A stretch of 64,000 nucleotides of DNA from Eledone cirrhosa (taxonomy: Eukaryota): positions 15,934,001-15,998,000 of the forward strand of contig OZ024766.1 of NCBI GenBank assembly GCA_964016885.1. The letters are read 5' to 3'. Below are positions 2,013-29,977 of the stretch, piece by piece; the stretch's first letter is position 1; each line of letters opens with the position of its first letter. A program made the translations under genes and the position numbers. Under the pieces are notes generated by a model that saw only the letters and a list, made by a program, of their open reading frames with translations, had not been told where the DNA came from and did no database searches.

Positions 2013-5000
2013 CTCACAATTTCCCTCCCCCCCACCCCCACACACCACCATAGTCTATTCGACCAATCAAACCTAGCATGCCATTTCCACTGCTGCTGCT
2101 GCTACTACCTGCCTAACTAACTCTCTCCTCCTCTGGCGCATCCCAACACACCCTGCCATTACCCCACCACCACTGTCCTTCTAGCCCTCAATTTTCCCAC
2201 CGTTATGGATGGATGAGCTGGGAATACATGAGCAACTCTGAATCAATAGATGAAATATGAATCTGCGAGCTACCAAGCACCCACGTGAAGCGCCAACCCA
2301 GAGACCCTCCCCTACGAGTGTCGACAAATGCCCAAAACTCCGAGTTGGTACCATCAATGTAGGCTCAATGAAAGGAAGAGCAGGAGAAATCGTAGAAATG
2401 CTAGAGCGAAAGGAAGTTGATGTATGCTGTGTGCAAGAGACTAGATGGAGAGGAGGGTCTGCTAGAGTCCTTGTAGGAAAAAGCCAGTGCTACAAATTTT
2501 TCTGGGTGGGAAATGACGATGGGATGGGTGGTGTAGGTATACTATTAGCTGACAAGTGGGTAGATAAAGTAATCTCAGTGTACAGAGTAAATGCAAGAAT
2601 CATTAAACTCAGACTAGTCCTGAATAAGACAATTACCACAATAATATCAGCTTACGCACCCCAATCGGGGTTGCCAGACGAACTTAAGGATAGGTTTTAC
2701 GAGTCCCTAATACACACTACTGCTCTAACAGACGACAAGGACTTCCTAATCATTGCAGGAGATTTTAACGGACACGTAGGTAAACACTGCGACGGCTTCA
2801 ATAGAGTACATGGAGGCCATGGAGTTGGCACAAGGAATGAGGAAGGATTCAGACTTCTAGAATTCTGCGACGCCAATGACATGTCGATATGTAACACAAA
2901 CTTTAAAAAACCCGACAACCACCTGATCACCTATAGATCAGGGGAGCACTCTAGTCAGTTAGATTTTATCCTCATCAGAGGACGTGACAGATGGACGGTC
3001 GTAAACACAAAAGCCTTCCCTAGTGAGGAATGTACATCCCAACATAGCTTAGTTGTCAGCGACCTCACGGTCAGAACTAGACGAGCCCTGAAACAGAGGC
3101 CAACCTGGAGAAGAAAGATCTGGAAGCTGAAAGTCCCCTCAACCAGTAACAGATTTAAAGATATTTTACTCAACGCCTACGACAGTAAAGAAGAACAGAT
3201 AGAGACATTTAACGTAGAAGAGAACTGGGAGTTCCTAAAAAATAACTTACTAGAGGCAACGGATGAGGTTTGTGGCTGGAGTAAGACCTCAAGCAGGAGG
3301 AGAGTGACTTGGTGGTGGAACAATAAGGTAGATGAAGCAGTCAAGGCCAAGAGACAGGCATGGAAAGAATGGAAGAACGGGGGGAGCAGGGTACATTACA
3401 TAGAGACCAAGAGGGAAGCTAGGCGACAAGTATACTTAGCTAGGAGGGAAGCAGAGGATAGAAAATTCAAGCATGTTTTACAACGTGAGGACCAGAAACA
3501 GGAGGTATTCAAGATTGCGAGGCAGTGTGTCAGAGATAGTTGTGATGTCATTGGAGAGAAGTGTATCCGGAATGATAAAGGTGAGCTTGCCCTCACAAGT
3601 GCTGAGAAGAAAGATGCATGGAAGAGTCATTATGATAGATTACTAAATGAGGAGAATGCATGGGAAGAAGAGACCCTACCCCACGTAGACCCTATAGAGG
3701 GACCAGCAGTACAAGTCAGCGGCAGCGTAGTAAGTAAGGCAATCAGAGATATGAAGATAGGGAAGGCAACCGGTCCATCGGGTATAGCTGCCGAGATGCT
3801 GAAGGCATCTGGGTCTGTAGGTCACACTATAACCACACGTATCGTTAACCAGGTAATACTAGAGGGGGCCATACCAAAAGATTGGTGCAGTAGCATCATT
3901 GTCAACTGCTACAAAGGTAAAGGCGATGCACTAGATAGAGGAAACTATAGAGGTATAAAGTTGATGGACCAGGTCATGAAAGTAACAGAAAGAGTTATAG
4001 CACAGCTGATTAGGGACCGGGTGAATATAGACGAGATGCAATTTGGGTTTGTACCAGGGAAAGGCACCACTGATGCGCTCTTCCTTGTGAGGCAATTACA
4101 GGAAAAGTACCTAGCTAAAAGTAAGCCACTCTACTTGGCATTTGTCGACCTTGAGAAAGCCTTTGACAGAGTTCCACGTGCAGTAATCTGGTGGGCTCTT
4201 AGAAAACTAGGAGTAGATGAATGGCTTGTGAAAGCGGTACAAGCCATGTATAGGGGAGCAGTCAGCAAAGTTAGGATTGGCAATGAGTATAGCGAGGAAT
4301 TTAGCGTACAGGTTGGGGTCCACCAGGGCTCTGTTCTTAGCCCTCTCCTGTTCATCATAGTCCTGCAGGCAATAACGGAGGAGTTTAAGACCGGATGCCC
4401 ATGGGAACTCCTGTATGCTGATGACCTCGCACTCATAGCTGAATCTATGGTAGAACTAGAGAATAAATTCCAAACCTGGAAGCAGGGACTAGAGAGAAAG
4501 GGCCTCAAAGTCAACATGACAAAGACTAAGGTCCTTATAAGTAGACGAGAAAACAGAACCCAGATCCCCTCAGGGAAATGGCCTTGCTCAGTATGTAGGA
4601 AAGGTGTAGGTAGGAACTCCATTCTTTGCCCCAAATGCAAACAATGGGTACACAAGAGATGTAGCGGGATCTCAGGAAGCTTAATTAAGAATGTAGGATT
4701 CACATGCAGCAGCTGTGCTGAAACAGCAAGCAAACAGCCACAGGAAACAAGTACCACCAATCTCTGGGAGGGCCCTGTAGAAACAGTAGACAGCTTCTGC
4801 TACCTAGGTGACCGAATTAGCAACGGAGGTGGGTGCTCAGAAAGTACAATAACTAGGGTAAGAACGGGATGGAAGAAGTTTAGGGAACTACTACCACTGC
4901 TAGCTGCAAAAGGCTTCTCCCTCAGAATGAAAGGCAGACTGTATGATGCGTGTATCCGAACAGCGATGTTGCATGGTAGTGAGACCTGGGCGCTGAAGGT

Positions 5001-5676
5001 GGAAGACTTACGTAGATTAGAGAGAAACGAAGCCTGCATGCTCCGATGGATGTGTAACAGTAATATACGTGAACGACAAAGCATAAATGAATTGAGAGAG
5101 AGACTGAGCATAAGAGGAATCAAATGCTGCGTGCAGGAGAGGCGGTTACGCTGGTATGGACATGTGATGCGTATGAAGGATGACAGCTGCATAAAAAGGT
5201 GCAGAGCACTAGAAGTTGATGGAAACCGCGGAGTGGGGAGACCCAAGATGACTTGGGATGAGGTGATAAAAGCCGACCTTACCCAACTACACCTCTCAAA
5301 GTCAATGACACACGACCGTGACTTCTGACGTCACGCAGTAATACAGGGTACCCGACCTCCCATGGGTACATGCTGAAGCATATAAACAATATGCCCCCCC
5401 CCCCCACCGCAAGGTGGTCGTGGAGGTGCCACGGCAAAAAAGCACCCAGCCCACACTGTAAAGTGGACGTGTAGGCGCCACGAAAAAGCACCCAGCACTC
5501 ACTGTAAATGAGGTTGGTGTTAGGAAGGGCATCCAGCTGTAGAAATCAAGCCAGATCAGTTCCTGTATGAGCAAGGCATGGTCAGCCGACCAGACACTGC
5601 CCACAACAGGACAACCCGTCTAACCCATGCTAGCGTGGAAGAACGGACGTAAAACGGTGATGATGATGATGATGAT
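1283..5676 (+). mobile_element. Near full-length RTE-clade non-LTR retrotransposon inserted in a (TA)n tract
   Basis: Flanks (ctagttgatatata... and ...cgtggaaaagtaaaatatagc) are contiguous in the empty site at 23770-23835. About 970 bp of 5' UTR, a single APE-RT ORF, and a 3' UTR ending ggacgtaaaacgg(tga)n. A short-repeat tail is typical of RTE elements. Confidence 0.93.
2257..5328 (+). CDS. LINE ORF: AP endonuclease + reverse transcriptase with PHD-like C4HC3 insert (1023 aa; stop probably premature by 15 codons)
   Basis: APE motifs GTINVGS, CVQETRW, SAYAPQ, AGDFNGH, SQLDFIL, SQHSLV. RT motifs NYRGIKL, QFGF, FVDLEKAFD, GVHQGSVLSP, LLYADD, FCYLG. RTE-type C-terminus RRLRWYGHVMR...RGVGRPKMTW. 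Confidence 0.96.
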   Translation: MNLRATKHPREAPTQRPSPTSVDKCPKLRVGTINVGSMKGRAGEIVEMLERKEVDVCCVQETRWRGGSARVLVGKSQCYKFFWVGNDDGMGGVGILLADKWVDKVISVYRVNARIIKLRLVLNKTITTIISAYAPQSGLPDELKDRFYESLIHTTALTDDKDFLIIAGDFNGHVGKHCDGFNRVHGGHGVGTRNEEGFRLLEFCDANDMSICNTNFKKPDNHLITYRSGEHSSQLDFILIRGRDRWTVVNTKAFPSEECTSQHSLVVSDLTVRTRRALKQRPTWRRKIWKLKVPSTSNRFKDILLNAYDSKEEQIETFNVEENWEFLKNNLLEATDEVCGWSKTSSRRRVTWWWNNKVDEAVKAKRQAWKEWKNGGSRVHYIETKREARRQVYLARREAEDRKFKHVLQREDQKQEVFKIARQCVRDSCDVIGEKCIRNDKGELALTSAEKKDAWKSHYDRLLNEENAWEEETLPHVDPIEGPAVQVSGSVVSKAIRDMKIGKATGPSGIAAEMLKASGSVGHTITTRIVNQVILEGAIPKDWCSSIIVNCYKGKGDALDRGNYRGIKLMDQVMKVTERVIAQLIRDRVNIDEMQFGFVPGKGTTDALFLVRQLQEKYLAKSKPLYLAFVDLEKAFDRVPRAVIWWALRKLGVDEWLVKAVQAMYRGAVSKVRIGNEYSEEFSVQVGVHQGSVLSPLLFIIVLQAITEEFKTGCPWELLYADDLALIAESMVELENKFQTWKQGLERKGLKVNMTKTKVLISRRENRTQIPSGKWPCSVCRKGVGRNSILCPKCKQWVHKRCSGISGSLIKNVGFTCSSCAETASKQPQETSTTNLWEGPVETVDSFCYLGDRISNGGGCSESTITRVRTGWKKFRELLPLLAAKGFSLRMKGRLYDACIRTAMLHGSETWALKVEDLRRLERNEACMLRWMCNSNIRERQSINELRERLSIRGIKCCVQERRLRWYGHVMRMKDDSCIKRCRALEVDGNRGVGRPKMTWDEVIKADLTQLHLSKSMTHDRDF

Positions 5677-6152
5677 ATATAATAAACGTGGAAAAGTAAA
5701 ATATAGCAGAACAGACCGTTAAAAGATGTTTATTTAAAATAGCACCTATGTACGTTTCACCTGGATGGGCTTCTCAAGGGTATAAATAACTAAAAAGTGT
5801 TCCTTACATGGCCCAGAATGTGTTTTTAGAGATAAGTTCACGTCAGAGTTCATTCTACGCAAAAAAGCGTGTTTTGATTTTGCAGTAGGTCAAGGGAGGT
5901 AACTCTAGCTGGTGTTAGGGCAGTCTTTCCCGGAAATTTTTTTATCTGTTAAAAGATATGGTTACAACCCTACCATTGTCGATACGCACAGGGTCAGGTA
6001 TGCAACGTTTGTTTGCTGCACCTGCCCGCCTGGGTCACTTGAAGCCATGTCTGGGATGCATGGTTAGTTTCCGGATGTTTTTTGCAGCGCCTGCTATATA
6101 TATATATATATGAGCGAGACACGGTCACCCGACCTAACTTGCTTCTAAATAC

Positions 6153-6210
6153 GACAAACCCGTCCAACACATGCTAGCATGGAAGATAGACATTAATCAA
6201 TGATGATGAT
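6153..6210 (+). mobile_element. Short older RTE/SINE 3'-terminal fragment (also 55343-55400)
   Basis: aacccgtccaacacatgctagcatggaagatagacattaatcaatgatgatgat resembles the LINE terminus aacccgtctaacccatgctagcgtggaagaacggacgtaaaacggtgatgat. Confidence 0.7.
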
Positions 6211-6480
6211 ATCTAGGGATTGTAACATTACCACAACAGAAGTCTGACAAGCTTTTAATTCCAGAGTCAGGCTAGATCAATACAGATCAAACCTTGAGCT
6301 GATCGATAGCAAAACGTGCTTCACTGCTCAATAAATGTAATGAAGACATGACAAATTGTCCTCTCGCTCTCTCTCTCTATATAGAGAAAAGGTGAAGTTT
6401 GAAATAGCACGGAAAATATATTTTAGGGCCTGTTTTTCTGTTATATATCTTTTGATTCGTTAAAGTGACCCTATTGAAAA

Positions 6481-6606
6481 AATCATCATTCATCATCATT
6501 TCATTTCACGTCCGCTTTTTCCCTGCTTGCAAGGGTGGTGCGGGAACTGATTGTGGCTGGGTGCCCTTCCTAATGCCAACCTCATTTACAGTGAGTGCTG
6601 GGTGCT
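6481..6606 (-). mobile_element. RTE-tailed SINE/LINE 3' fragment (also about 24031-24170, 32146-32285, 55675-55812)
   Basis: Reverse complement agcacccagcactcactgtaaatgaggttggcattaggaagggc...cccttgcaagcagggaaaaagcggacgtgaaatgaaatgatgat matches the LINE 3' UTR and the SINE tail at 54725-54856. Confidence 0.8.
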
Positions 6607-6609
6607 GTC

Positions 6610-7932
6610 ATGTTGAATGTTTTTCATGATGTTGTGGTAGGCATATTTCTGGTCATCCACCAGTCAAGGTTTATTTTGATCCACAAACTTACGCAACACT
6701 TCAATATCATGGTTTGTCTCCTGAAAAACTGATTGTGTTACCTCAATTTCTTCTGGCTCTGGCATCCCGCATTGCTATTCATTGCTGGAATTCAATGGGA
6801 CAGTTTGCACAGAGGTTGATTGTAAATCCTGGAGGTAGATTCCACATAAACATTGCTATAACATCTTTGGTCTAGGTGTAGATAGTCGTCTGACATATTG
6901 TTTTTGTGCTCCTTCCAGGGTAGATGAGATTTATTCCACATGCTGTGAGTATAGTAGGAAACAACTGTCTTATTTAACTGGCTACTCCAGTGACTGCTCC
7001 TTCTAGTACCTTCTCCCAATGTCAGTTGTCATACAGGTGTCCATGGCCATCTTATTTAACTGGCTACTCCAGTGTCTGCTCCTTCTCGTCTCTTCTTCCA
7101 ATGCCAGTTGTCATACAGGAGTCCATGGCTGTCTTATTTAACTGGCTACTCCAGTTACTGCTCCTTCTAGTCACTTCTTCCAATGTCAGTTGTCATACAG
7201 GTGTCCATGGCTGTCTTATTTAACTGACTACTCCAGTGACTGCTCCTTCTAGTCTCTCTTTCCAATGTCAGTTGTCATACAGAAGTCCATGGCTGTCTTA
7301 TTTAACTGGCTACTCCAGTGACTGCTCCTTCTAGTCCCTTCTTCCAATGTCAGTTGCCATACAGGTGTCCATGACTGTTTTATTTAACTGACTACTCCAG
7401 TGACTGCTCCTTCTAGTCTCTCTTTCCAATGTCAGTTGTCATACAGAAGTCCATGGCTGTCTTATTTAACTGGCTACTCCAGTGACTGCTCCTTCTAGTC
7501 TATTCTTCCAATGTCAATTGCCATGCAGGAGTTGATGTTCTTTAGATGCTTCTTGGTATGTGCTGCACTCTTCCACCAAATCACCTGAGATCCTCAAATG
7601 ACGTTGGTCCTTGAACAATATGCAGAAGTGGCTGTAAATAAAAACTCTCTCTGTCGTTGGGGTGGTCATTGTAAACATGCCCAATAGCATCACTTGCCTT
7701 GACTTCATCACCTTCCACTAAATGACCCTGCTTCCTTTGATTCCAAGTCTTACAATTGGTCCAGGTGTAGTATTTTGGGATGTCAGCATATAGGAGGGAT
7801 CGAACAAATTCTTTATTCTGGCAGTGTTTCAAAAAAGCAGTTAGAGTAGTGTCAGGTGGTGCTGGTGTCAACTGATGAGCAGTGGTTTCAGTGAAGTACA
7901 CACTCTGTCCATTTTCTATATGTATAGAGATA
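6610..7932 (-). pseudogene. Decayed Helitron Rep/helicase fragment (region between Rep and PIF1 motif I), split by the 82-bp minisatellite
   Basis: Minus-strand translation SIHIENGQSVYF...TTLTAF...LLYADIPKYYTW...AIGHVYNDHP...FYLQPLLHIVQGPTSFEDLR...CSTYQEA...LL..N.HW, then beyond the array RQLF..IL..C...WKEHKNNMSDD...GMPEP...ETNHDIEVLRKFVDQNKP*LVDDQKYAYHNIM. These match Helitron RepHel motifs as recalled. Contains stops and frameshifts. Confidence 0.88.
6967..7514. repeat. 82-bp minisatellite, about 6.7 copies
   Basis: Unit gtcttatttaactggctactccagtgactgctccttctagtcccttcttccaatgtcagttgtcatacaggtgtccatggct. Confidence 0.97.
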
Positions 7933-7959
7933 AGGATGAAAAGCAAAGTTAATCTCTCA

Positions 7960-8433
7960 GAGGTTAGCTTTGCCTTTCATCCCTACGGGGTCGATAAAAT
8001 AAAGTACCAGTAATACACTGGGGTAATTGCTGGCCTTGTGCCTAAAGTAGAAACAATTTTTACGGGGTCGATAAAATAAAGTACCAGTAGTACACTGGGG
8101 TAATTGCTGGCCTTGTGGCTGAAGTAGAAACAGTTATTATGGGGTTGATAAAATAAAGTACCAGTAATTCACTGGTGCTATTTGCTGGCCTTGTTCCTAA
8201 AGTAGAAACAGTTATTACGGGGTTGACAAAATAAACTACCAGTAATACACTGGGGTATTGCCGGCCTTGTGGCTAAAGTAGAAACAATTATTACGGGGTT
8301 GATAAAATAAAGTACCAGTAATTCACTGGTGTTATTTGCTGGCCTTGTGCCTAAAGTAGAAACAGTTATTACCTGGCTGATAAAATATAGTACCAGTAAT
8401 TACTGGCCTTGTGTTAAAAGTAGAAACAATTAT
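7960..8433 (+). repeat. Tandem of a ~77-bp SINE 3' half, 6 copies (2 copies at 17408, 25519, 47069; 3 copies at 37802, 58271)
   Basis: Unit acggggtcgataaaataaagtaccagtaatacactggggtaattgctggccttgtgcctaaagtagaaacaattatt matches the 3' half of the SINE at 10075-10250. Confidence 0.88.
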
Positions 8434-9179
8434 CACATTTCTTTTTAATAAATCACATCACTATAGAATTAAATACGACTGGAAATGTGTGTGAAGGTAT
8501 TAAATTATGTCACGGACTTTTAACGTTTGACACCGTACGAGAGTTGAAATATACGCAACGAGACCGAGTACCTGCTGCCTTCATTATAACTTTAATTAAT
8601 CTGATTATATCTTGTGTAACAATTATATATATATACACACACACAAGTTTAATAACCCGACATCTGTCTTACACTGTCATATCTATTCTTACTTTACAAT
8701 TGTGTCTACTAAGAGTTCCATTACAATCTGTAGTAGTAAAACTACTATTTCACCAGAACATCTGCTATCAGTCATTTATAGACAATATATATATTTGAGA
8801 CCACGTATCAACCTAATATATATATATTTCCTATCAAATCTGTAGCTAAAGACATAAAGTCAGCCTCACTACTTCATTCTGACAAGATATCAATTTATGA
8901 CTAAAGATGAAGAAGATACACCAACGTTAATGTCGTGAAATAAAGCTGATAACATTGAAACTTCTAATTTGATAACAAAGAGATTATTTCTTTGGTTGTT
9001 TAGTAACAACTAACAACACAATACATTGATTATATGTTAAGGAGGTAAGTTGACAAAGATTTACTTAATGTCTATATTAATGTGTGTAAATAATATAATT
9101 ATTTTAACCCTACAACGATCTAGTAATTAACCAGATTCCACTGTTACATGTGATATAAAATATATTGTTATCATGACTC

Positions 9180-9748
9180 TTTATTATTTAAATTACCTCC
9201 GTCTATTTAATTATCTTGTTCACTACCTTACATTATAAAATATAGTTTATATTTAGCGGTACCTTGTTGTTGCTTTAAGTAAATTAAAGATATATTTATT
9301 ATTTAAATTACCTCCGTCTATTTAATTATCTTGTTCACTACCATACATTATAAAATATAGTTTATATTTAGCTGTACCTTGTCATTGCTTTAAGTAAATT
9401 AAAGATATTTTTGTTATCTAAATTACCGCCGTCTATTTAATTATCTTGTTCACTACCTTACATTATAAAATATAGTTTATATTTAGCTGTACCTTGTCAT
9501 TGCTTTAAGTAAATTAAAGATATATTTATTATTTAAATTACCTCCGTCTATTTAATTATCTTGTTCACTGCCTTACATTATAAAATATAGTTTATATTTA
9601 GCTGTACCTTGTTGTTGCTTTAAGTAAATTAAAGATATATTTATTATTTAAATTACCTCCGTCTATTTAATTATGTGGTTCACTACCTTACGTTATAAAA
9701 TATAGTTTATATTTAGATGTACCTTGTTATTACTTTAAGTAAATTAAT
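9180..9748. repeat. 115-bp AT-rich intronic tandem repeat, 5 copies
   Basis: aattacc(t/g)cc recurs at 9191, 9306, 9421, 9536 and 9651. Confidence 0.95.
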
Positions 9749-10017
9749 ATTTTGTCTATTTTAGTCTAAACCTCTTACAATTTAATTAACTTCATCTACT
9801 TATGGTTGAACATTATTTTATTGCGGGTTTCATTTAATTGTAATTATGTCTGAGTTAGCCAGCCAAGTAGGGGTTTAGTATCTGTATTTCAGGGAACTGG
9901 TTTGATGGTGAAGGGACATCTGTTGGTGTGGGATCTCGGTGGCTGTACATAATAAGGTTCTAATACTCTAAAGAGCTAGCTGAATAACCGTCTGATACAT
10001 GTCTTGTATAGACGATC

Positions 10018-10382
10018 ATAAAGCCATGTATAGAAGAGCAGTCAGCAATGTCAGGATTTACATTCATAGTGAAGTGGCAGTATCGGTAGGGAGTCGGACA
10101 CCATGGTTTGAGGCACAGAGTTACGTCCCTTTATGATCTGAGTTCAAATCCGTCTGAGGTTAACTTTGCCTTACATCCATACGGGGTCGATAAAATAAAG
10201 TACCAGTAATGTACTGGCTAATTGCTGGCCTTGTGTTTAAAATAGAAACAATTATAGTGAAGAATTTGGAGTGTAGTCTGGTGTCCACCAGGGCTCTGTT
10301 CTTAGCCCTCACTTAGTTATTATCGTCCTGCAGCCTATAACAGATGTTTAAGACTGGCTGCCCATGGGAACTCCTGTATGCA
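10018..10382 (+). mobile_element. Old RTE RT fragment (AMYR..GVHQGSVLSP..GCPWELLY) interrupted by a SINE; present in all six cassettes
   Basis: Aligns to LINE 4240-4420 on both sides of the SINE. Confidence 0.85.
10075..10250 (+). mobile_element. tRNA-derived SINE with target-site duplication
   Basis: A-box-like tggcagtatcgg and B-box gagttcaaatcc, flanked by the (att)atagtgaag direct repeat. Confidence 0.8.
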
Positions 10383-10389
10383 CAGCAGG

Positions 10390-10925
10390 ACCTGAAGAAT
10401 GCGATCATATGCATTTTCAAGGTCTATAAAACGATAATATATACCTCTTAGCAATACTCCCACGATTTCTCAAAGACCTGCCACAGTGTGAATATTTGGT
10501 GGGTTATGTTGCGCCCAGGGATAAAACAGCACTGTCCATCAGCTAGCTCGGACTCGCTACATCACTTTGCCAGAAACTTAGCATAGACTTTACCAGGGAG
10601 GCTTAACAAGGAGATCCCTCTCTATTTGGAACAATCTCTCGTGTGTCCCTTTTTATAAATTGGGATTATCACTCCCGATTGCATTGCTTGAGTGCCATTT
10701 CAGAGACCCAGGCCATCTGACACACATGAGTCGGTCATATTTGAGCTCTTTAATTGCTCTTGTGACCTCAGCCTCCGAGAGATTAGTCACCGCTACCAGA
10801 TTCACCTCATGTACATCCGAAGATGCTGTTGTGATTGGGTTTGGGAGATCAGCAAAGTATTCTCTCCATCTCATAAGGATCCATCTCTCTGAAGAGAAGA
10901 GAACCCCAGATGCACTCATGGTTGC
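10390..10925 (-). mobile_element. Decayed RT fragment of a second RTE-like LINE family (also about 19430-19965, 27541-28078, 39790-40311, 49427-49962, 60207-60742)
   Basis: Minus strand reads ILMRWREYFADLPNP...LSEAEVTRAIKELK...GVIIPIYKKG..RDCSK*RGISLLSLPGKVYAK...FIDLENAYDR, with stops and frameshifts. Confidence 0.85.
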
Positions 10926-11107
10926 AGGTGTGGAGAAAGATTTCTTGTAACTAATTAAAAACTAAAATAATTTGATTTTTCAATAACATGTTTCCAGGGT
11001 TTATAGATGTAAAATTTCCACTGTTAAATCTATCTCTGCTTCTTAAGTATTCTCTATTATCTCATACTGTTTCTTTTTCATTTCAGAATATCAGATGACA
11101 TTGGGAT

Positions 11108-11340
11108 AAATTATTACTTTCAATCTTGGATACATCACCTCTATTTATCATCATTTGAAGATTAAAACGTTTTAAACAGAACTTATATAACACTGTTTAT
11201 ATAAATCTATCAGAATTACTGTGAAAATTATTATTTTCAATCTTGGATACATCACCTCTATTTATCATCATTTGAAGATTACAACTTTTTAAACAGAACT
11301 TATATAACACTGTTTATATAAATCTATCAGAATTACTGTG
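11108..11340. repeat. 117-bp tandem duplication in the 5' UTR (cassettes 1, 2 and 3 only)
   Basis: caatcttggatacatcacc at 11121 and 11238; single copy in cassettes 4-6. Confidence 0.9.
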
Positions 11341-11583
11341 ATATATTTCCTCAGAACTGAGTTTAAAGACAAAATTCCTTTTCTTCACTGTGTGGTATAT
11401 ATATGAGAGATATATTTTGTATTTTAACTCAGCTTCAATAACAAAGAAGTTTGCATCATCTTCAGATCTTAACTGAGATCATAATTGAGGGAAATATAAC
11501 AGAAGTAATATTTTTTAGGAATATAATATAAAAAATATTAAATAATAACATCTGTAAATTCTGCCAAGGGAAGAAGAATTATT

Positions 11584-13194
11584 ATGGAAAATATATTGAG
11601 TGAAAAGAAGATTAAATGTGAAACAATGACTAAAGATATGGCTATTACAGAAGAGATGTCAAAGGATAGAGGAGAGAAGCCATATCACTGTGATGTCTGT
11701 GGTAAATCATTCTTTTTTAAGGGTAATTTAACAAGCCACAAACGTACACATACCGGAGAGAAGCCATACCACTGTGATATCTGTGGTAAATCATTCTCTC
11801 AAAATAGTAATTTAACTAGCCACATGCGTATACATACAGGTGACAAACCATATCACTGTGATATCTGTGGTAAATCATTCTCTCGAAGTAGTATATTAAC
11901 TAGCCACATGCGTATACATACAGGTGAGAAACAATATCACTGTGATATCTGTGGTAAATCATTCTCTCAAAGTGGTCACTTAACTAGCCACAAACGTACA
12001 CATACAGGAGAGAAGCCAAATCACTGTGATATCTGTGGTAAATCATTCTCTCTAAGTAGTATATTAACTAGACACAAACGTATACATACAGGAGAGAAGC
12101 CATATCACTGTGATATCTGTGGTAAATCATTCTCTCAAAGTAGTGCCTTAACTAGCCACAAACATATACATACAGGAGAGAAGCCATATCACTGTGATAT
12201 CTGTGGTAAATCATTCCATAGAAGTAGTAAATTAACTACTCACATACGTTCCCATACAGGAGAGAAGCCATATAACTGTGATATCTGTGGTAAATCATTC
12301 TCTCAAAGTAGTATATTAACTAACCACATGTATATACATATAGGTGAGAAACCATATCGCTGTGATATCTGTGGTAAATCATTCTCTCTAAGTAGTATAT
12401 TAACTTGTCACATCCGTACCCATACAGGTGACAAACCATATCACTGTGATATCTGTGCTAAATCATTCTCTGAAAGTGGTAACTTAACTAGACACAAACG
12501 TATGCATACAGTAGAGAAGCCATATCACTGTGATATCTGTGGTAAATCATTCTTTGTTAATGGTAATTTAACTAAACACAAACATATACATACAGGAGAG
12601 AAGCCATATTGTGATATCTGTGGTAAATCATTCTCTCAAAGTGGTAGTTTAACTATACACGAACGTATACATACAGGAGACAAACCATATGTCTGTGATA
12701 TCTGTGGTATATCATTCTCTGATAGTGGTAGCTTAGCTAGCCACAAACGTATACATACAAAAGAGAAGCCATATCACTGTGATATCTGTGGTAAATCATT
12801 TTCTCAGAGTAATGCCTTAACTAGCCACAAACGTATACATACAGGAGAGAAACCATATCACTGTGATATCTGTGGTAAATCATTCTCTGAAAGTGGTAAC
12901 TTAACTAGCCACAAACGTATACATACGGGAGACAAGCCATATCACTGTGATATCTGTGGTAAATCATTCTCTGATAGTAGTACCTTAACTAGCCACAAAC
13001 GTATACATACAGGAGAGAAGCCATATCACTGTGATATCTGTGGTAAATCATTCTCTGAAAGTGGTAACTTAACTAGCCACATACGTACCCATACAGGTGA
13101 GAAGCCATATCGCTGTGATATCTGTGGTAAATCATTCTCTCAATTAAGTAGTTTAACTAAACACAAATATACCCATACAGGTAAGAAACCATAA
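11584..13194 (+). CDS. Poly-C2H2 zinc-finger protein, 18 fingers (gene 1)
   Basis: 33-aa leader followed by CxxC-x12-HxxxH repeats with TGEKP linkers; open 536-aa frame. Confidence 0.95.
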
Positions 13195-13712
13195 CAAAGT
13201 CATATCTCATTGTCTCAAAATTGTAAATTCATTAGACACAAATACATTCATATGAGTGAGAAGCCATACCACTGTGATATTGCGGAGAAATTATTCTCTT
13301 GTATTGCTACATTAACTACATACAAACATAAATATATACTGGAGAAAAACCATATTACTGTGATATCTGTGGAAATTGTTATCTATAAAAGCTAGCTTAA
13401 CTAGACACAAACATATACATACAGGAGATAAACCATATCACTGTGATATCTGTGGAAATCATTCTCTGAAATAAGTCACTTCACTCAGTACTAACATTTA
13501 CAGAAAAGGAAACATATCATTGTGATATCTGCAGTAAATCATTCTCTAAATGTTGAGGCTTCACTACACACTAACATATACAGGAGAGGAACCATATCAC
13601 TGTGATATCAGCAGTAAATCCTTCACTAAATGTGGCTTCACTAGATACTAACATATACAGGAGAGGAACCATATCACTGTGTTGTCTGTGGTAAATCATT
13701 TTCTAAATGTTC
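13195..13712 (+). pseudogene. Decayed zinc-finger repeats in the 3' UTR (also 21566-22245, 29679-30358, 42119-42560, 52525-53043, 62901-63420)
   Basis: ccatatcactgtgatatctg..aaatcattctct motifs continue past the stop with frameshifts and lost ligands. Confidence 0.85.
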
Positions 13713-14160: not shown

Positions 14161-14283
14161 ATAGGAAAATGTTTAACCCCGCCGGAAGAGCTCAGTCCGT
14201 TTCGATGGCTATTTCTGGAAACAGTCCAGAAATAACCGTCGAAATGGCTTGAGCTCTGCCGTCGGGGTTAAACATTTTCCTAT
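14161..14283. repeat. Palindrome A: ~59-bp arms, 5-nt loop (also 22696-22818, 30809-30931, 42998-43120, 53481-53602, 63875-63997)
   Basis: ataggaaaatgtttaacccc...ctatttctgga aacag tccagaaata...ggggttaaacattttcctat. Confidence 0.92.
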
Positions 14284-14737
14284 ATATATATATATATATA
14301 TATGTATGAGTGTATATGTCAGTGTGTAGAAATTTCTGTACATGAAAATGATTATCTTTATTCGTGTATATGTATGTGCATGTTTATATGTGTTCTTATA
14401 TACATGTGTGCACATCTTGATATATTTTCAGTGTCTGTTCTAGTTCTCAGAGTACAAATCCCACTGAGGTAAAGTTACTCCATGGAGCTTATTTTACGGG
14501 TGATATGGCGCATGTCTTTCTGGCATGACACCCATAATTTGTTATAGATTAATTTTATTTTAATTTATCTTAATTTTTGATATATATAAATACGGCCTCT
14601 GAATTGTAGTGCTAACTCTGTTGAAAGAACCTGACTGCTGTTTCTAGTTGTCAATAACCCTATTCACGCCACTGGGACGAAGCTGGTATGATGTGTGTAT
14701 TTTTAGTAGATACAGCACGTGTTACTGGTCAGTTACT

Positions 14738-16967
14738 TACTCCAGTGACTGCACCTTCTAGTCTCTTCTGCCAATGTCAGTTGTCATACAGGAGTTCATG
14801 GATGTCTTATTTAACTGACTGCTCCTTATAGTGCCTTCTTCCAATGTCAGTTGACATAAAGGTGTCCATGGCTGTCTTATTTAACTGGCTACTCCAGTGA
14901 TTGCTCCTTCTAGTCTCTTCTTCCAATGTCAGTTGTCATACAGGTGTCCATGGCTGTTTTATTTAACTGGCTACTCCAGTGACTGCTCCTTCTAGTCCCT
15001 TCTTCCAATGTCAGTTGTCATACAGGTGTCCATGGCTGTCTTATTTAAATGGCTACTCCAGTGACTGCTCCTTCTAGTCTCTCTTTCCAATGTCAGTTGT
15101 CATACAGGTGTCCATGGATGTCTTATTTAACCGACTGCTCCTTCTAGTCCCTTCTTCCATTGTCAGTTGTCATACAGGAGTCCATGGCTGTTTTATTTAA
15201 CTGGCTACTCCAGTGATTGCTCCTTCTAGTCCCTTCTTCCAATGTCAGTTGACATAAAGTTATCCATGGCTGTCTTATTTAACTGGCTACTCCAGTGATT
15301 GCTCCTTCTAGTCCCTTCTTCCAATGTCAGTTGACATAAAGTTATCCATGGCTGTCTTATTTAACTGGCTACTCCAGTGACTGCTCCTTTTAGTCCCTTC
15401 TTCCAATGTCAGTTGTCATACAGGAGTCCATGGCTGTCTTATTTAACAGGCTACTCCAGTGACTGCTCCTTCTAGTCCCTTCTTCCAATGTCAGTTGTCA
15501 TACAGGAGTCCATGGCTGTCTTATTTAACTGGCTACTCCAATGATTGCTCCTTCTAGTCTCTTCTTCCAATCTCAGTTGTCATACAGGTGTCCATGGCTG
15601 TCTTATTTAACTGGCTACTCCAGTGACTGCTCCTTCTAGTCCCTTCTTCCAATGTCAGTTGTCATACAGGTGTCCATGGCTGTCTTATTTAACTGGCTAC
15701 TCCAATGATTGCTCCTTCTAGTCTCTTCTTCCAATCTCAGTTGTCATACAGGTGTCCATGGCTGTCTTATTTAACTGGCTACTCCAGTGACTGCTCCTTC
15801 TAGTCCCTTCTTCCAATGTTAGTTGTCATACAGGAGTCCATGGCTGTCTTATTTAACTGGCTACTCCAATGATTGCTCCTTCTAGTCTCTTCTTCCAATC
15901 TCAGTTGTCATACAGGTGTCCATGGCTGTCTTATTTAACTGGCTACTCCAGTGACTGCTCCTTCTAGTCCCTTCTTCCAATGTTAGTTGTCATACAGGAG
16001 TCCATGGCTGACTTATTTAACTGGCTACTCCAGTGACTGCTCCTTCTAGTCCCTTCTTCCAATGTCAGTTGTCATACAGGAGTCCATGGCTGTCTTATTT
16101 AACTGGCTACTCCAGTGACTGCTCCTTCTAGTCCCTTCTTCCAATGTTAGTTGTCATACAGGAGTCCATGGCTGTCTTATTTAACTGGCTACTCCAGTGA
16201 CTGCTCCTTCTAGTCCCTTCTTCCAATGTCAGTTGTCATACAGGAGTCCATGGCTGTCTTATTTAACTGGCTACTCCGGTGACTGCTCCTTCTAGTCCCT
16301 TCTTCCAATGTCAGTTGTCATACAGGAGTCCATGGCTGTCTTATTTAACTGGCTACTCCAGTGATTGCTCCTTCTAGTCTCTTCTTCCAATGTCAGTTGT
16401 CATACAGGTGTCCATGGCTGACTTATTTAACTGGCTACTGCAGTGACTGCTCCTTCTAGTCTCTTCTTCCAATGTCAGTTGTCATACAGGTGTCCATGGC
16501 TGTCTTATTTAACTGGCTACTCCAGTGACTGCTCCTTTTAGTCCCTTCTTCCAAAGTCAGTTGTCATATAGATGTCCATGGCTGACTTATTTAACTGGCT
16601 ACTCCAATGACTACTCCTTCTAGTCCCTTCTTCCAATGTCAGTTGTCCTACAGGAGTCCATGACTGTCTTATTTAACTGGCTATTCCAGTGACTGCTCCT
16701 TCTAGTCTCTTCTTCCAATGTCAATTGTCATACAGGTGTCCATGGCTGTCTTATTTAACTGGCTACTCCAGATACTGCTCCTTCTAGTCTCTTCTTCCAA
16801 TATCAGTTGTCATACAGGTGTCCATGGCTGTCTTATTTAACTGGCTACTCCAGGGACTGCTCCTTCTAGTCCCTTCTTCCAATGTCAGTTGTCATACAGG
16901 AGTCCATGGCTGTCTTATTTAACTGGCTACTCCAGTGACTGCTCCTTCTTGTCTCTTCTTCCAATGT
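14738..16967. repeat. 82-bp minisatellite, about 27 copies
   Basis: Same unit as 6967-7514; left flank deleted (joined to gttactggtcagtt). Confidence 0.97.
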
Positions 16968-17381
16968 CAATTGCCATGCAGGAGTTGATGTTCTTTAGAT
17001 GCTTCTTGTTATTTGCTGCACTCTTCCAACAAATCACCTGAGATCCTCAAATGACGTTGGTCCTTGAACAATATGCAGAAGAGGCTGTATAGAAAACTCT
17101 CACTGTTGTTGGGGTGGTCATTGTAAACATGCCCAATAGCATCACTTGCCTTGACTTCATCACCTTCCACTAAATGACCCTGCTTCCTTTGATTCCAAGT
17201 CTTACAATAGGTCCAGGTGTAGTATTTTGGGATGTCAGCATATAGGAGGGATCGAACAAATTCTTTATTCTGGCAGTGTTTCAAAACAGCAGAGTAGTGT
17301 CAGGTGGTGCTGGTGTCAACTGATGAGCAGTGGTTTCAGTGAAGTACACACCCTGTCCATTTTCTATATGTATAGAGATAA
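16968..17381 (-). pseudogene. Helitron RepHel fragment, cassette 2
   Basis: KHCQNKEFVRSLLYADIPKYYTW...AIGHVYNDHP; paralogous to 7515-7932. Confidence 0.85.
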
Positions 17382-18336
17382 GGATGAAAAGCAAAGTTAA
17401 TCCCTCAGAGGTTAGCTTTGCCTTTCATCCCTACGGGGTCGATAACATAAAGTACCAGTAATGTACTGCCGTATTGCTGGCCTAGTGCCTAATGTAGAAA
17501 CAATTATTACGGGATCGATAAAATAAAGTACCAGTAATTCAATGATTTATTTACTGGCCTTGTGCCAAAAGTAGAAACAATTATCACCTTTCTTTTTAAT
17601 AAATCACATCACTATAGAATTAAATACGACTGGAAATGTGTGTGAAGGTACTAAATTATATCAGGGACTTTTCACGTTTGACACCGTCACGAGACTCGAA
17701 ACATTCGCTAAGACACCGAGTACCTGCTGTCTTCGTTATAACTTTAATTAATCTAATTATATCTTGTGTAACAATTATATATATATATATACACACACAC
17801 AATTTTAATTCCCCGACATCAGTCTTACACTGTCATATCTATTCTTACTTTACAATTGTGTCTACTAAGAGTTCCATTACAATCTGTAGTAGTAAAACTA
17901 CTATTTCACCAGAACATCTGCTATCAGTCATTTATAGACAATATATATATTTTAGACCACATATCAACCTAATATATATATATTTCCTATCTAATCTGTA
18001 GCTAAAGACATAAAGTCAGCCTCACTACTTCATTCTAACAAGATATCAATTGATGACTAAAGATGAAGAAGATACACCAACGTTAATGTCGTGAAATAAA
18101 GCTGATAACATTGAAACTTCTAATTTGATAACAAAGAGATTATTTCTTTGGTTGTTTAGTAACAACTAACAACACAATACATTGATTATATGTGAAGGAG
18201 GTAAGTTGACAAAGATTTACTTAATGTCTATATTAATGTGTGTAAATAATATAATTATTTTAACCCTACAACGACCAGTAATTAACCAGATTCCACTGTT
18301 ACATGTGATATAAAATATATTGTTATCATGACTGTC

Positions 18337-18785
18337 TTTATTATTTAAATTACCTCCGTCTATTTAATTATCTTGTTCACTACCTTACATTATAAAATAT
18401 AGTTTATATTTAGCTGTACCTTGTTGCTTTAAGTAAATTAAAGATATATTTATTATTTAAATTACCTCCGTCTATTTAATTATCTTGTTCACTACCTTAC
18501 ATTATAAAATATAGTTTATATTTAGCTGTACCTTGTTGTTGCTTTAAGTAAATTAAAGATATATTTATTATTTAAATTACCTCCGTCTATTTAATTATCT
18601 TGTTCACTACCTTACATTATAAAATATAGTTTATATTTAGCTGTACCTTGTTGCTTTAAGTAAATTAAAGATATATTTATTATTTAAATTACCTCCGTCT
18701 ATTTAATTATCTTGTTCACTACCTTACATTATAAAATATAGTTTATATTTAGCTGTACCTTGTTATTGCTTTAAGTAAATTAATA
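18337..18785. repeat. 112/115-bp intronic repeat, 4 copies
   Basis: aattacctcc at 18348, 18460, 18575 and 18687. Confidence 0.93.
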
Positions 18786-19113
18786 TTTTGTCTGTTTTAG
18801 TCTAAATCTCTTACAATTTAATTAACTTCATCTACTTATGGTTGAACATTACTTTATTGTGGGTTTCATTTCATTATAATTATGTTTGAGTTAGCCATCC
18901 AAGTAGGGGTTTAGTATCTGTATTTCAGGGCACTGCTTTGATGGTGAAGGGACATCTGTTGGTGTGGGATCTCGGTGGCTGTACATACTAAGGTTCTAAT
19001 ACTCTAAAGAGCTAGCTGAATAACCGTCTGATACATGTCTTGTATACAGGATCATAAATCCACGTATAGAAGAGCAGTCAGCAATGTCAGGATTAACATT
19101 CATTATAGTGAAG

Positions 19114-19289
19114 TGGCAGTATCGGTAGAGAGTCGGACACCGTGCTTTGAAGCACAGAGTTACGTCCCTTTATGATCTGAGTTCAAATCCCGCCGAGGTT
19201 AACTTTGCCTTACATCCATACCGGGTCGATAAAATAAAGTACCAGTAATGTACTGGGTAATTGCTGGCCTTGTGTTTAAAATAGAAACA
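19114..19289 (+). mobile_element. tRNA-derived SINE with 12-bp TSD
   Basis: TSD attatagtgaag at 19102-19113 and 19290-19301; B-box gagttcaaatcc. Confidence 0.85.
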
Positions 19290-20623
19290 ATTATAGTGAA
19301 GAATTTGGAGTGTAGTCTGGTGTCCACCAGGGCTCTGTTCTTAGCCCTCACTTAGTTATTATCGTCCTGCAGCCTATAACAGAGATGTTTAAGACTGGCT
19401 GCCCATGGGAACTCCTGTGTGCTCAGCAGGTCCTGAAGAATGCGATCATGTGCATTTTCCAGGTCTATAAAACGATAATATATACCTCTTAGCAATACTC
19501 CCACGATTTCTCAAAGACCTGCCACAGTGTGAATATTTGGTGGGTTATGTTGCACCCAGGGAGCAAACAGCACTGTCCATCAGCTAGCTCGGACTCGCTA
19601 CATCACTTTGTCAGAAACTTAGCATATACTTTACCAGGGAGGCTTAACAAGGTGATCCCTCTCTATTTGGAACAATCTCTCTTGTCTCCCTTTTTATAAA
19701 TTGGGATTATCACTCCCGATTGCCTTTGCTTGAGTGCCATTTCAGAGACCCAGGCCATCTGACACACGAGTCGGTCACATTTGAGCTCTTTAATTGCTCT
19801 TGTGACCTCAGCCTCCGAGAGATTAGTCACCGCTACCAGATTCACCTCATGTACATCCGAAGATGCTGTTGTGATCGGGTTTGGGAGATCAGCAAAGTAT
19901 TCTCTCCACCTCATGAGGATCCATCTCTCTGAAGAGAAGAGAACCCCAGATGCACTCATGGTTGCAGGTGTGGAGGAAGAATTCTTGTAACTAATTAAAA
20001 ACTAAAATAATTTGATTTTTCAATAAAAAGTTTCCAGGGTTTATAGATGTAAAATTTCCACTGTTAAATCTATCTCTGCTTCTTAAGTATTCTCTATTAT
20101 CTCATACTGTTTCTTTTTCATTTCAGAATATCAGATGACATTGGGATAAATTATTATTTTCAATCTTGGATACATCACCTCTATTTATCATCATTTGAAG
20201 ATTAAAACTTTTTAAACAGAACTTATATAACACTGTTTATATAAATCTATCAGAATTACTGTGAAAATTATTGTTTTCAATCTTGGATACATCACCTCTA
20301 TTTATCATCATTTGAAGATTAAAACTTTTTAAACAGAACTTATATAGCACTGTTTATATAAATCTATCAGAATTACTGTGATATATTTCCTCAGACCTGA
20401 GTTTAAAGACAAAATTCCTTTTCTTCACTGTGTGGTATATATATGAGAGATATATTTTGTATTTTAACTCAACTTCAATGACAAAGAAGTTTATATCATC
20501 TTCAGATATTAACTGAGATCATAATTGAGGGAATATAACAGAAGAAATATTTTTTAGGAATATAATGTAAAAAAATATTAAAGAATAACATCTGTAAATT
20601 CTGCCAAGGGAAGAAGAATTATT

Positions 20624-21565
20624 ATGGAAAATAAATTGAGTGAAAAGAAGATTAAATGTGAAACAATGTCTAAACATATGGCTATTACAGAAGAGATGTC
20701 AAAGGATAGAGGAGAGAAACCATATCACTGTGATGTCTGTGGTAAATCATTCTCTCTAAGTCGTATATTAATTTGTCACATACGTACCCATACAGGTGAC
20801 AAACCATATCACTGTGATATCTGTGGTAAATCATTCTCTCAAAGTAGTACCTTAACTACACACAAACATATACATACAGGAGACAAGCCTTATCACTGTG
20901 ATATCTGTGGTAAATCATTCTCTTTTAGTAGTAATTTAACTTCTCACATACGTACTCATACAGGAGACAAGCCTTATCACTGTGATATCTGTGGTAAATC
21001 ATTCTTTAATAATATTAGTTTAACTAGACACGAACGTACCCATTCAGGAGAGAAGCCATATCACTGTGATATCTGTGGTAAATCATTCTTTGTTAATAGT
21101 AATTTAACTAGACACAAAAGTATACATACAGGAGAGAGGCCATATCACTGTGATATCTGTGGTAAATCATTCTCTCAAAGTGGTCACTTAACTAGCCACA
21201 AACGTATACATACAGGAGAGAAGCCATATCTCTGTGATATCTGTGGTAAATCATTCTCTGATAGGAGTACCTTAACTAACCACAAACGTGTACATACAGG
21301 AGACAAGCCATATCACTGTGATATCTGTAGTAAATCATTCTCTGAAAGTGGTAACTTAACTAGCCACAAACGTATCCATACAGGAGAGAAGCCATATCAC
21401 TGTCATATCTGTGGTATATCATTCTCTCAAAGTAGTCACTTAACTAAGCACTTACGTATCCATACAGGAGACACGCCATACCACTGTGATATCTGTGGTA
21501 AATCATTCTCTCAATTAAGTAATTTAACTAAACACAAATATACCCATACAGGTAAGAAACCATAA
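20624..21565 (+). CDS. Poly-C2H2 zinc-finger protein, 10 fingers (gene 2)
   Basis: 313 aa = 33 + 10x28. Confidence 0.95.
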   Translation: MENKLSEKKIKCETMSKHMAITEEMSKDRGEKPYHCDVCGKSFSLSRILICHIRTHTGDKPYHCDICGKSFSQSSTLTTHKHIHTGDKPYHCDICGKSFSFSSNLTSHIRTHTGDKPYHCDICGKSFFNNISLTRHERTHSGEKPYHCDICGKSFFVNSNLTRHKSIHTGERPYHCDICGKSFSQSGHLTSHKRIHTGEKPYLCDICGKSFSDRSTLTNHKRVHTGDKPYHCDICSKSFSESGNLTSHKRIHTGEKPYHCHICGISFSQSSHLTKHLRIHTGDTPYHCDICGKSFSQLSNLTKHKYTHTGKKP

Positions 21566-21702
21566 CAAAGTCATATCTCATTGTCTCAAAATTGTAAATT
21601 AATTAGACACAAATACATTCATATGAGTGAGAAGCTATACCACCGTGATATTGTGGAGAAATTATTCTCTTGTATTGCTACATTAACTACATACAAACAT
21701 AA

Positions 21703-21864
<162 letters not shown>

Positions 21865-21940
21865 TAACATTTACAGAAAAGGAATCATATCATTGTGATA
21901 TCTGCAGTAAATCATTCTCTAAATGTGGCTTCACTACACA

Positions 21941-22250
21941 CTAACATATACAGGAGAGGAACCATATCACTGTGATGTCTGTGGTAAATCCTTCTCTAAA
22001 TGTTGTGGTTTCTCTAGACACTAACATATACAGGAGAGGAACCATATCACGGTGATGTCTGTGGTAAATCCTTCTCTAAAAGTTGTGGTTTCTCTAGACA
22101 CTAACATATACAGGAGAGGAACCATATCACTGTGATGTCTGTGGTAAATCATTCTCTAAATGTTGTGGCTTCACTAGACACTAACATATACAGGAGAGGA
22201 ACCATATCACTGTGATATCTGTGGTAAATCATTTTCTAAATGTTGTGGTA
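21941..22250. repeat. 80-bp tandem of a dead zinc finger, 4 copies (also about 30054-30363)
   Basis: ctaacatatacaggagaggaacc at 21941, 22021, 22101 and 22181. Confidence 0.9.
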
Positions 22251-23147
22251 CCAACATAAGGTTACTTAATGTAACACAAACACAATCAGACAAGATAAAA
22301 ACCATGTCACTCACCCAAAATAGTGCCACCAATGTTGTTAATGTCTTGAATAAAACTTGTTTGTTCTGAAATTATTCTCCTTTCATTTTATTTGTAGAAG
22401 TTGTAACCAAGACTTATGCTGACAAATCTGTATGGTACAGAATTTACAAACACTATATATATATATATATATATATATATGTGCCAAAACATCTATGATC
22501 TCGGTTTACAGCTGATGAAGGGTTTCTTCTCTCCTTTCATCCATATTACCATCTTAAACTTTGTTTACAGTAACCACACAACTCCTTTCGTTTCTTATGA
22601 TTTTATATATATATATAACAAAGGAGGTGTGGTAAAGAACCAGATGGACCATATACGCACCAGAGTACTCAATACTTACGGTAGTAGAGTGGGTAATAGG
22701 AAAATGTTTAACCCCGACGGCAGAGCTCAATCTGTTTCGACGGCTATTTCTGGAAACAGTCCAGAAATAACCATCGAAATGGCTTGAGCCCTGCCGTCGG
22801 GGTTAAACATTTTCCTATATATATATATATATATATGTATGAGTGTATATCTCAGTGTGTAGAAATTTCTGTCCATGAAAATGACTATCTTTATTTGTGT
22901 ATATATATGTGTGTATATGTATGTGTATGTTTATGTGTTCTTATATACGTGTGTGCACATCTTGATGTATTTTCAGTGTCTGTTCTAGTCCTCAGAGTAC
23001 AAATCCCACTGAGGTAAAGTTGCTTCGTTATTTTGAGGTCAATAAATGAAATACCAGTGAAATACTGGGGGTGTGGGGTTAATTCCTCTTCTTTGTCATT
23101 GTCTGTTTGTCTACTCTTCTCTTTCTCTGTATATATATATATATATA

Positions 23148-23336
23148 TCCAAAATTAAGATAAATAAAATTAATCTATATCAAATTATGGGTGTCTGCCA
23201 GAAAGACAGGCGCCATATCACTCGTAAAATAAGGTCCATGGAGCATATTTCATGAGCGATATGGCGCCTGTCTTATTGGCATGACACCCATGATACGATT
23301 CAGATTAATTTCATTTTAATTTATCTTAATTTTGGA
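23148..23336. repeat. Palindrome B, diverged copy (also 31263-31451)
   Basis: tccaaaattaagataaa...tccatgga...tttatcttaattttgga between (TA)n tracts. Confidence 0.88.
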
Positions 23337-23777
23337 TATATATATATATAAATAGGGCCTCTTAATTGTAGAGCTAACTCTGTTGAAAGGACCTGACTGC
23401 TGTTTCTAGTTGTCAATAACCCTATTCACGCAACTGGGACGAAGCTGGTATGATGTGTGTATTTTTAGTAGATACAGCACGTGTTACTGGTCAGTCGCTG
23501 ATTTGAACTTGATGCGTAAACACAGATGGTTGGACTTCTTCCTTGTTGAGAATCCAAGATCTGGCTACTGTCGTTTACCAATCGATTAATTGGTGAAATA
23601 TATTTCTTTAATGGAATATATACAAGGAAGATTAATCATTTTCTAAGGTATCTATTTTTGAAGTTCTAGTTAAACTTTATTTAGTTACCTACCTAGCTAT
23701 GTGTGCTTACACACTTTTACAAATTATCCCCTGTGATTGTTTCATATGTTTATTTATATGTCAATCAATTTCTAGTT

Positions 23778-23815
<38 letters not shown>

Positions 23816-24171
23816 CGTGGAAAAGTAAAATATAGCAGAACAGACCGTTAAAAGATGTTTATTGAAAATAGCACCTATGTAATGAAGACATGACAAATTG
23901 TCCTCGCGCTCTCTCTATATATAGAGAAAAGGTGAAGTTGGAAATAGCACGGAAAATATATTTTAGGGTCTGTTTTTCTGTTATTTATCTTTTGGTTCGT
24001 CAAAGTGACATTATTGAAAATATGGGAGGGACATCATCATTCATCATCATTTCATTTCACGTCCGCTTTCTCCCTGCTTGCAAGGGTGGGACGGGAACTG
24101 ATTCTGGCTTGATATCTACAGATGGATGCCCGTCTTAACGCCAACCTCACTTACAGTGAGTGCTGGGTACT

Positions 24172-29815: not shown

Positions 29816-29977
<162 letters not shown>

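Follow-up and report, generated by a model that had tools for sequence, protein, structure and literature searches.

An 82-bp minisatellite that probably arose from a Helitron RepHel reading frame in a zinc-finger gene cluster of Eledone cirrhosa

The origin of tandem repeats from the open reading frames (ORFs) of transposons is already known as a principle. What appears to be the closest known case is the satellite CficCl-61-40 of Chenopodium, where a 40-bp piece of tnp2 of the CACTA-like element Jozin is described as the starting monomer (PMC7320549). Retroelement ORFs have also given rise to tandem repeats, among them PROsat and Pvc20 (both from LINE-1 ORF2), HinfI (CR1) and E3900 (gag) (PMC9659126). 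According to the same source, non-coding parts prevail as the origin of transposon-derived repeats, with LINE ORF2, gag and CACTA tnp2 listed, and the only Helitron row in its Table 1 is for the central tandem repeats of DINE, DINE-TR1 of Drosophila being the Helitron-tied repeat named there (PMC9659126). In Xenopus, arrays are described that consist either of duplicated non-autonomous elements or of a 166-bp minisatellite, Heli2Xen, at the ends of the element (PMC12001565). Helitron-like pieces at the centromeres of Meloidogyne are described as having no correspondence to RepHel (PMC13404089).

Here we describe an 82-bp tandem repeat of the octopus Eledone cirrhosa. Very probably, 27 codons of a broken RepHel fragment were amplified in tandem to form it; it was born once, then likely spread passively with a zinc-finger (ZNF) gene unit, and is likely to have served as a substrate for unequal crossing over. 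The window, by which we mean the whole stretch of DNA that was analysed, is 64 kb long (assembly GCA_964016885.1, contig OZ024766.1, positions 15,934,001 to 15,998,000). Tandem Repeats Finder reports six arrays of one 82-bp monomer in it, with 6.9, 26.6, 6.9, 57.9, 31.0 and 19.9 copies (called A1 to A6 below), so that array size ranges from 0.6 to 4.7 kb, or from 7 to 58 monomers. Each array lies in its own unit of 8–11 kb, together with a 77/78-bp array, a 115-bp array and a C2H2 zinc-finger ORF, and the units are arranged head-to-tail. A RepHel flank has been kept on at least one side by all six.

All six arrays are given here on the minus strand. Tandem Repeats Finder places the 6.9 copies of A1 at 6965–7532; counted in register, A1 has seven monomers at 6965–7538, of which 7457–7538 is a diverged monomer at the entry edge. 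A2 (14734–16991) has about 27 monomers and has kept its right RepHel flank at 16992–17428, the left flank being lost in a deletion that ends inside the array. A3 (24529–25102) has 7 monomers and is a hybrid, its left part and left flank being of A4 type and its right part and right flank of A2 type. A4 (32644–37381), with 58 monomers and both RepHel flanks, has a higher-order repeat of 16 monomers (1306 bp), which occurs about 2.7 times and is marked by a monomer with a 76-bp deletion. A5 (44103–46648; 31 monomers) has lost its left flank through a deletion that reaches from an (AT)n run into the array, and A6 (56209–57850; 20 monomers) has RepHel flank on both sides. A separate tandem duplication of 37 bp is found in the left RepHel flank of A6 (56073–56150), and looks like the two-copy start of another ORF-derived repeat.

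The C2H2 zinc-finger ORF of A1's unit was taken from the ORF list and lies at 11542–13194 on the plus strand, with paralogues at 20582, 28695, 40799, 50461 and 61245; Pfam gives a zf-C2H2 match on the ZNF paralogue at 20624. The RepHel fragment is antisense to this ORF, about 3.6 kb upstream of it. Among 120 ZNF matches listed, one Octopus vulgaris protein has the linker motif of the window's ZNF proteins four times, and four other proteins have it no more than once. Every ZNF ORF is followed, behind its stop codon, by decayed, out-of-frame zinc-finger repeats with periods of 78–86 bp (13195–13710 and paralogues).

The units contain several other repeats and mobile elements. The first unit holds an intact non-LTR retrotransposon ORF of 1024 codons (2254–5328) with endonuclease, reverse transcriptase and PHD finger, and an inverted 418-bp piece of the 3' end of this retrotransposon, 95.5% identical, is found at 1–418. 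An exact-sequence look-up of this LINE ORF and of four ZNF ORFs found none of them in the protein collection searched. Beside the RepHel fragment lies the 77/78-bp array, with 2–6 copies per unit (7984–8400, 17399–17584, 25510–25695, 37794–38056, 47061–47246 and 58263–58525). The source that was expanded in tandem is the 3' part of a short dispersed repeat, a single copy of which is seen at 10147–10255, and the array would be a second minisatellite born in place in the 8–11 kb unit. The short dispersed repeats that flank the fragment and gave the 77/78-bp array are SINE-like, and we take them to be octopus SINEs. Every unit also has an AT-rich 115-bp array (9180–9747 and paralogues; 2.6–6.7 copies) and, by a (TA)n run, a MITE-like hairpin of 123 bp with 59-bp arms that are 88% complementary (14161–14283 and near 22700, 30810, 43000, 53480 and 63880). 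A duplication of 117 bp (11108–11341 and paralogues) is present in the first three units, and the sequence is single in the last three.

The flanks of the arrays resemble RepHel proteins. A stop-free piece of 93 amino acids (7584–7862) gave six protein matches, five of them to proteins with Helitron_like_N and/or PIF1 domains, and matched 908 cluster representatives at E up to 0.001. No Pfam family was found on the 93-aa peptide itself; the region falls between Pfam domains. As a reference we used P0003, a RepHel protein of 1483 residues in which Pfam identifies Helitron_like_N and PIF1, the Rep domain at 391–571 and Pif1 from 1032 onwards. In tblastn its residues 766–886 match 7931–7566 on the minus strand with 54% identity (E 1e-42), and residues 885/897–913 match the monomers. 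On the exit side, residues 504–653 of another protein, P0004, match 7036–6616 in three collinear pieces (sum E 2e-11). By tblastn, translation and collapse alignment, the part upstream of A1 (7539–7931, minus strand) thus corresponds to P0003 residues 766 to about 896, and the frameshifted part downstream (6616–6964, minus strand) extends to about residue 1047, at the start of the Pif1 domain. The whole minus-strand fragment (6616–7931) holds about 830 bp of RepHel, from between Rep and the start of Pif1. Judged by this collinear homology, over residues 766–1047 of P0003, the sequence is derived from a Helitron RepHel gene. Chance similarity is ruled out by the tblastn matches together with the collapse test described below, and an autonomous Helitron is rejected as well, only the inter-domain part and the first Pif1 residues being left, with stops and frameshifts. 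No RepHel match outside the fragment was found with 28 long proteins on the whole window, apart from one stray match inside the LINE ORF, and none beyond it when four intervals were searched with 73 long proteins. A closer RepHel protein named from a cephalopod was not seen among the 6, 150 and 120 matches listed, and the best identities were 56–62%.

A first-pass annotation of this stretch, made from the letters alone, had proposed that the minisatellite came from Helitron coding sequence, and the collapse test, the spacing of motifs and the single-unit relatives all bear this out. The peptides that it quoted are found on the minus strand by translation, HQLLHGN*HWKNRLEGAVTGVAS*IRQ at the entry and RQLFPTILTAC and WKEHKNNMSDD at the exit. 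It had also stated that the Helitron frame enters the array and resumes after it; collinear RepHel sequence is indeed present on both sides, but the frame is not continuous: ahead of the array it is broken by a stop that follows EDLR and by a frameshift near 7570, and beyond the array by more frameshifts.

For the collapse test, 156 proteins were fetched, a RepHel profile was built from the 74 that cover the whole region, and the DNA was aligned to it with frameshifts allowed. When A1 is collapsed to one unit, as the annotation had suggested, the sequence aligns collinearly across the monomer and scores 158.3 bits over P0003 residues 861–1047, against 91.9 with no unit and 108.1 with two or three. 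The monomer corresponds to 27 codons plus one base, from the stretch between the Rep and Pif1 domains (RepHel residues 897–924 minus one codon). With the flanks held fixed, seven real cores (five inner monomers, the consensus and a hybrid with the edge) score 85.5–94.8, compared with a mean of 54.4 (sd 6.0, maximum 72.1) for 60 shuffled monomers and 45.2 for the reversed monomer. Taken without its flanks the monomer has no significant match to the RepHel profile, the consensus reaching 16.9 bits and 18 of 300 shuffles scoring as high, and two of the five inner monomers had their best match at the wrong place or in the wrong frame; the identification is therefore carried by the flanks. That each monomer repeats a RepHel segment, another claim of the annotation, is thus borne out for the anchored monomer and not for the monomer on its own. 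Since the flanks fix where in the ORF the monomer should align, and it does align there, the array is a tandem repeat from a transposon ORF.

The spacing of conserved motifs gives a measure that needs no alignment. Of 116 further RepHel proteins, 89 have G(PTSF) and R(xLF) at a distance of 51 codons (153 nt) and one at 49 codons, the motifs being unmatched in 26. The same distance in the window is 640 nt, and if 6 × 82 is subtracted, 148 nt are left, 5 short of 153. The span from W to R is 18 residues in 56 of the 74 and 84 of the 116 RepHel proteins, and 17 in the monomer. The five missing bases would fit one lost codon plus two bases at the frameshift near 7570, where some relatives carry two extra letters, although other one-letter indels are also seen there. 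The spacing agrees with the collapse test.

Seven public sequencing runs contain part of the stretch, and four of them were compared at 80% likeness. In run X1, one contig has a joint from 6996 to 7486 that skips 489 bases, which is 6 × 82 − 3; two further joints (6998–7174 and 7203–7535), both at a depth of 7.91 and taken to be one contig, net 161 + 328 = 489. One record (20) of run X7 spans both flanks in 158 bases, against 651 in the window, and one joint in X4 nets 500 bases. The joint evidence comes from 15 of 24 joints, several of which fit no simple arithmetic, and in three of those relied on here the two sides are separated by unknown or replaced letters. Loose ends translated by hand read D-N-G-H-W-K-K-T-L-E (8 contigs, X1) and F-A-I-M-L-T-I-C-E (1 contig, X4). 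These peptides are closer to the columns of the RepHel profile than the monomer is, and are without the stop. Like RepHel proteins, the single-unit relatives have one codon more than the monomer. Related elements with a single unit thus exist, seen as short pieces from diverged cousins. Their long pieces differ from the window by 12–19% and they are therefore cousins and not the direct parent. The annotation had proposed to look for parent Helitrons with a single unit in the genome; single-unit copies are present in public contigs, with joints netting 489, and a direct single-unit parent was not recovered in the contigs examined.

The depth of these contigs also gives some idea of abundance. 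The flanks in X1 average 1500–2100, against 8–11 in the diverged contigs, and one 322-base contig of the left flank has a depth of 297. We infer a copy number of the flanks between tens and a few hundred, as an order of magnitude only, since summed depth is not itself a measure of copies. Summed contig depth corresponds to 62–86 monomers per flank, against 25 in the window, which may be due to bias, longer arrays or unlinked arrays. Runs X4, X5 and X7, from organisms B, C and D, hold small shares of the stretch at low depth, and the almost identical pieces of the monomer in X4 and X7 may reflect either real presence or carry-over. A search of metagenome contigs with an exact 31-base monomer pattern gave 0 matches.

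The monomers themselves record what happened after the expansion began. Statistics are based on the 142 of 149 rows that are 82 bp long, 7 with indels being left out. None of the 142 is open in the RepHel frame; codon 8 is a stop in 138 of them and codon 24 in 135, and no frame of any array stays free of stops for more than 81 codons. A coding expansion is thereby excluded, and since no monomer is open and the stops are shared, the expanding unit was non-coding, in line with the annotation. As a refinement, the amplified unit would have come from a fragment that was already damaged, as it lacks a codon and 135 of the 142 monomers have the stop at codon 24. Codon 8 encodes Arg in the edge monomers of A4 and A6, so that its stop may be older or younger than the first duplication, and the ORF was not necessarily dead before the array began. 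A duplication of 82 bases would by itself break the frame.

The entry-side edge monomer is the same in all six arrays. It differs from the consensus at 9–12 of 82 positions, compared with 2.7–4.3 for inner monomers, and nearly all of these differences are in its outer half, with six fixed positions within 22 bases. The arrays are homogenised on the exit side and not on the entry side. Edge monomers in old satellites and minisatellites escape homogenisation and diverge. Apart from one recent pair, the flanks of the arrays are 1.4–5.4% apart. Because edge monomer and flanks are common to all six arrays, there was one birth followed by copying with the 8–11 kb unit, and six independent births are excluded by the common edge monomer.

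One such copying event can be followed closely. Two tandem copies of one unit, 8112 and 8116 bp long and 99.9% identical in alignment, occupy 16463–32689 (16463–24574 and 24574–32689). They differ by four substitutions and two two-base gaps in 8116 columns, and each carries the same ZNF ORF of 327 codons (20582–21565 and 28695–29678). The junction of this duplication lies in an interval of 75 bp inside A3 (24574–24648), between the last A2-type mismatch at 24573 and the first A4-type mismatch at 24649. A3 is identical to A4 up to 24648 and to A2 from 24574, except for a single mismatch of its own at 24683; on the left its flank is 0.0% from that of A4, and on the right 0.0% from that of A2 and 3.7% from that of A4. 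Arrays 2 and 4 exchanging unequally within the 75 bp would explain this structure. As the junction is inside an array, the array is likely a crossover site. It is the only duplication junction located inside an array. Two deletions end in arrays (A2 and A5) and other deletions end outside them; the arrays make up 21% of the DNA and contain 3 of the roughly 9 ends of deletions and duplications, which is no clear enrichment of breakpoints. That the 82-bp array is a recurrent crossover site driving copy number in a large octopus C2H2 ZNF subfamily of about a hundred units is a tentative idea, which we would not favour at present; if true, the monomer variants would record the order of the gene duplications.

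The history that we propose starts from an internal RepHel piece of about 830 bp (residues 766–1047), which lies in antisense orientation some 3.6 kb upstream of the ORF of a C2H2-ZNF gene. Its segment H-G-L-L...I-R-Q, present seven times in A1 and once in relatives, may have been duplicated long ago as 82 bases by slippage or mis-repair, and this would have started the array. One X1 loose end, with two shared bases and one added base, suggests microhomology at the junction of this first duplication, and is a lead only. The expanding unit would already have lacked one codon and gained a stop, so that the expansion took place in non-coding DNA. The six arrays descend from this one by copying along with the 8–11 kb unit, and their lengths have since changed to between 7 and 58 monomers, one array acquiring a higher-order repeat. 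Out-of-register exchange between arrays 2 and 4 may finally have produced the hybrid A3 and the second copy of a ZNF gene. A different start can be imagined, in which two diverged Helitron copies exchanged out of register and joined the front half of one to the whole unit of the other. The entry-edge monomer, with its 9–12 differences concentrated in the outer half against 2.7–4.3 in inner monomers, and with the six fixed ones within 22 bases, would suit such an origin, as would relatives that are 12–19% different from the window. Diverged edge monomers are, however, expected in any old array, and the codon-8 stop is common to four of the six edges and to the inner monomers, and we consider an exchange between two copies possible but rather unlikely.

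It does not appear that Helitron machinery spread the arrays, which move together with the ZNF gene in a segmental duplication. The whole 8–11 kb unit might instead be a non-autonomous Helitron with a captured ZNF gene, amplified in tandem by rolling-circle replication, the array being its internal repeats; the units are head-to-tail, and tandem arrays and gene capture are reported for Helitrons (PMC12001565). Against this, there is no RepHel sequence beyond residues 766–1049, the fragment is bounded by short dispersed repeats on both sides, and the sole resolvable junction between units is inside an array and not at a terminus. A crude scan of both strands for CTAG|T behind a GC-rich hairpin (stem 7–10 bp, CTAG|T only, a scan that misses decayed or variant ends) gave 0 sites. 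With no further RepHel sequence and no terminus found, Helitron transposition of the unit is therefore unlikely, and we hold this account to be highly improbable. A role of the array in regulating ZNF genes, through binding sites or the seeding of heterochromatin, could explain why it is found in all six units about 3.6 kb from the ZNF ORF, and ZNF proteins are said to target satellites (PMC10547256). Yet copy number varies eightfold, flanks are deleted in two of six units, the monomer folds no better than shuffles (z −1.5 and 0.1), Rfam gives 0 matches on 5300–11600, and duplication alone accounts for the array in all units, which makes retention for such a role quite improbable. The origin could also be as proposed while the hybrid A3 and the 8.1-kb duplicate are an artefact of assembly, with two alleles written in tandem. 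Alleles could be as similar as the two copies, which are 99.9% identical with 4 substitutions and 2 dinucleotide gaps over 8116 columns, and the junction is within a repeat; but A3 is only 574 bp long, the two flanks that it connects by way of 75 bp of identity can be told apart, and as the assembly resolves a 4.7-kb array with higher-order structure, the reads probably span 574 bp. An artefact is thus unlikely.

Gene clusters can be duplicated by non-allelic homologous recombination between repeats. The present locus is like such cases in having tandem gene copies and a junction in a common repeat, and differs in that the substrate is a transposase-derived minisatellite and that the junction is narrowed to 75 bp. 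Expansion of C2H2-ZNF clusters in cephalopods was reportedly described by Albertin in 2015. If the arrays are usual breakpoints across the cluster, they would offer a testable mechanism and markers for cephalopod zinc-finger expansion.

No tandem repeat from a RepHel ORF, nor this 82-bp repeat, was found in a search of the open-access literature. As far as the sources describe them, DINE-TR1 and Heli2Xen resemble the 82-bp repeat in being minisatellites linked to a Helitron family, and they sit within non-autonomous elements or at both ends of an autonomous copy and travel with the element. The 82-bp repeat, in contrast, is a piece of the ORF itself, with no termini found; a central repeat of the DINE-TR1 type, non-coding and between termini, is rejected because the monomer is ORF-derived. 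With PROsat, Pvc20, HinfI and E3900, as described, it has in common that coding sequence of a mobile element has turned into tandem non-coding DNA, but those repeats come from Class I elements. With this locus the ORF of the Helitron transposase joins the known sources of tandem repeats, and the birth of one is recorded with unusual completeness: the array is flanked by the ORF on either side, relatives have a single unit, the edge monomer is fixed, and higher-order structure and a duplication junction are present. CficCl-61-40, as far as it is described, is similar in that a piece of a DNA-transposon ORF is the monomer and a fragment of the parent ORF still adjoins the array. It differs from the present case, where the monomer is a Helitron RepHel segment, the host is an animal, and arrays of 0.6–4.7 kb lie in a gene cluster. 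Here, moreover, both flanks are kept, and therefore the array collapses back into the ORF, and the window shows one birth and not a repeated supply.
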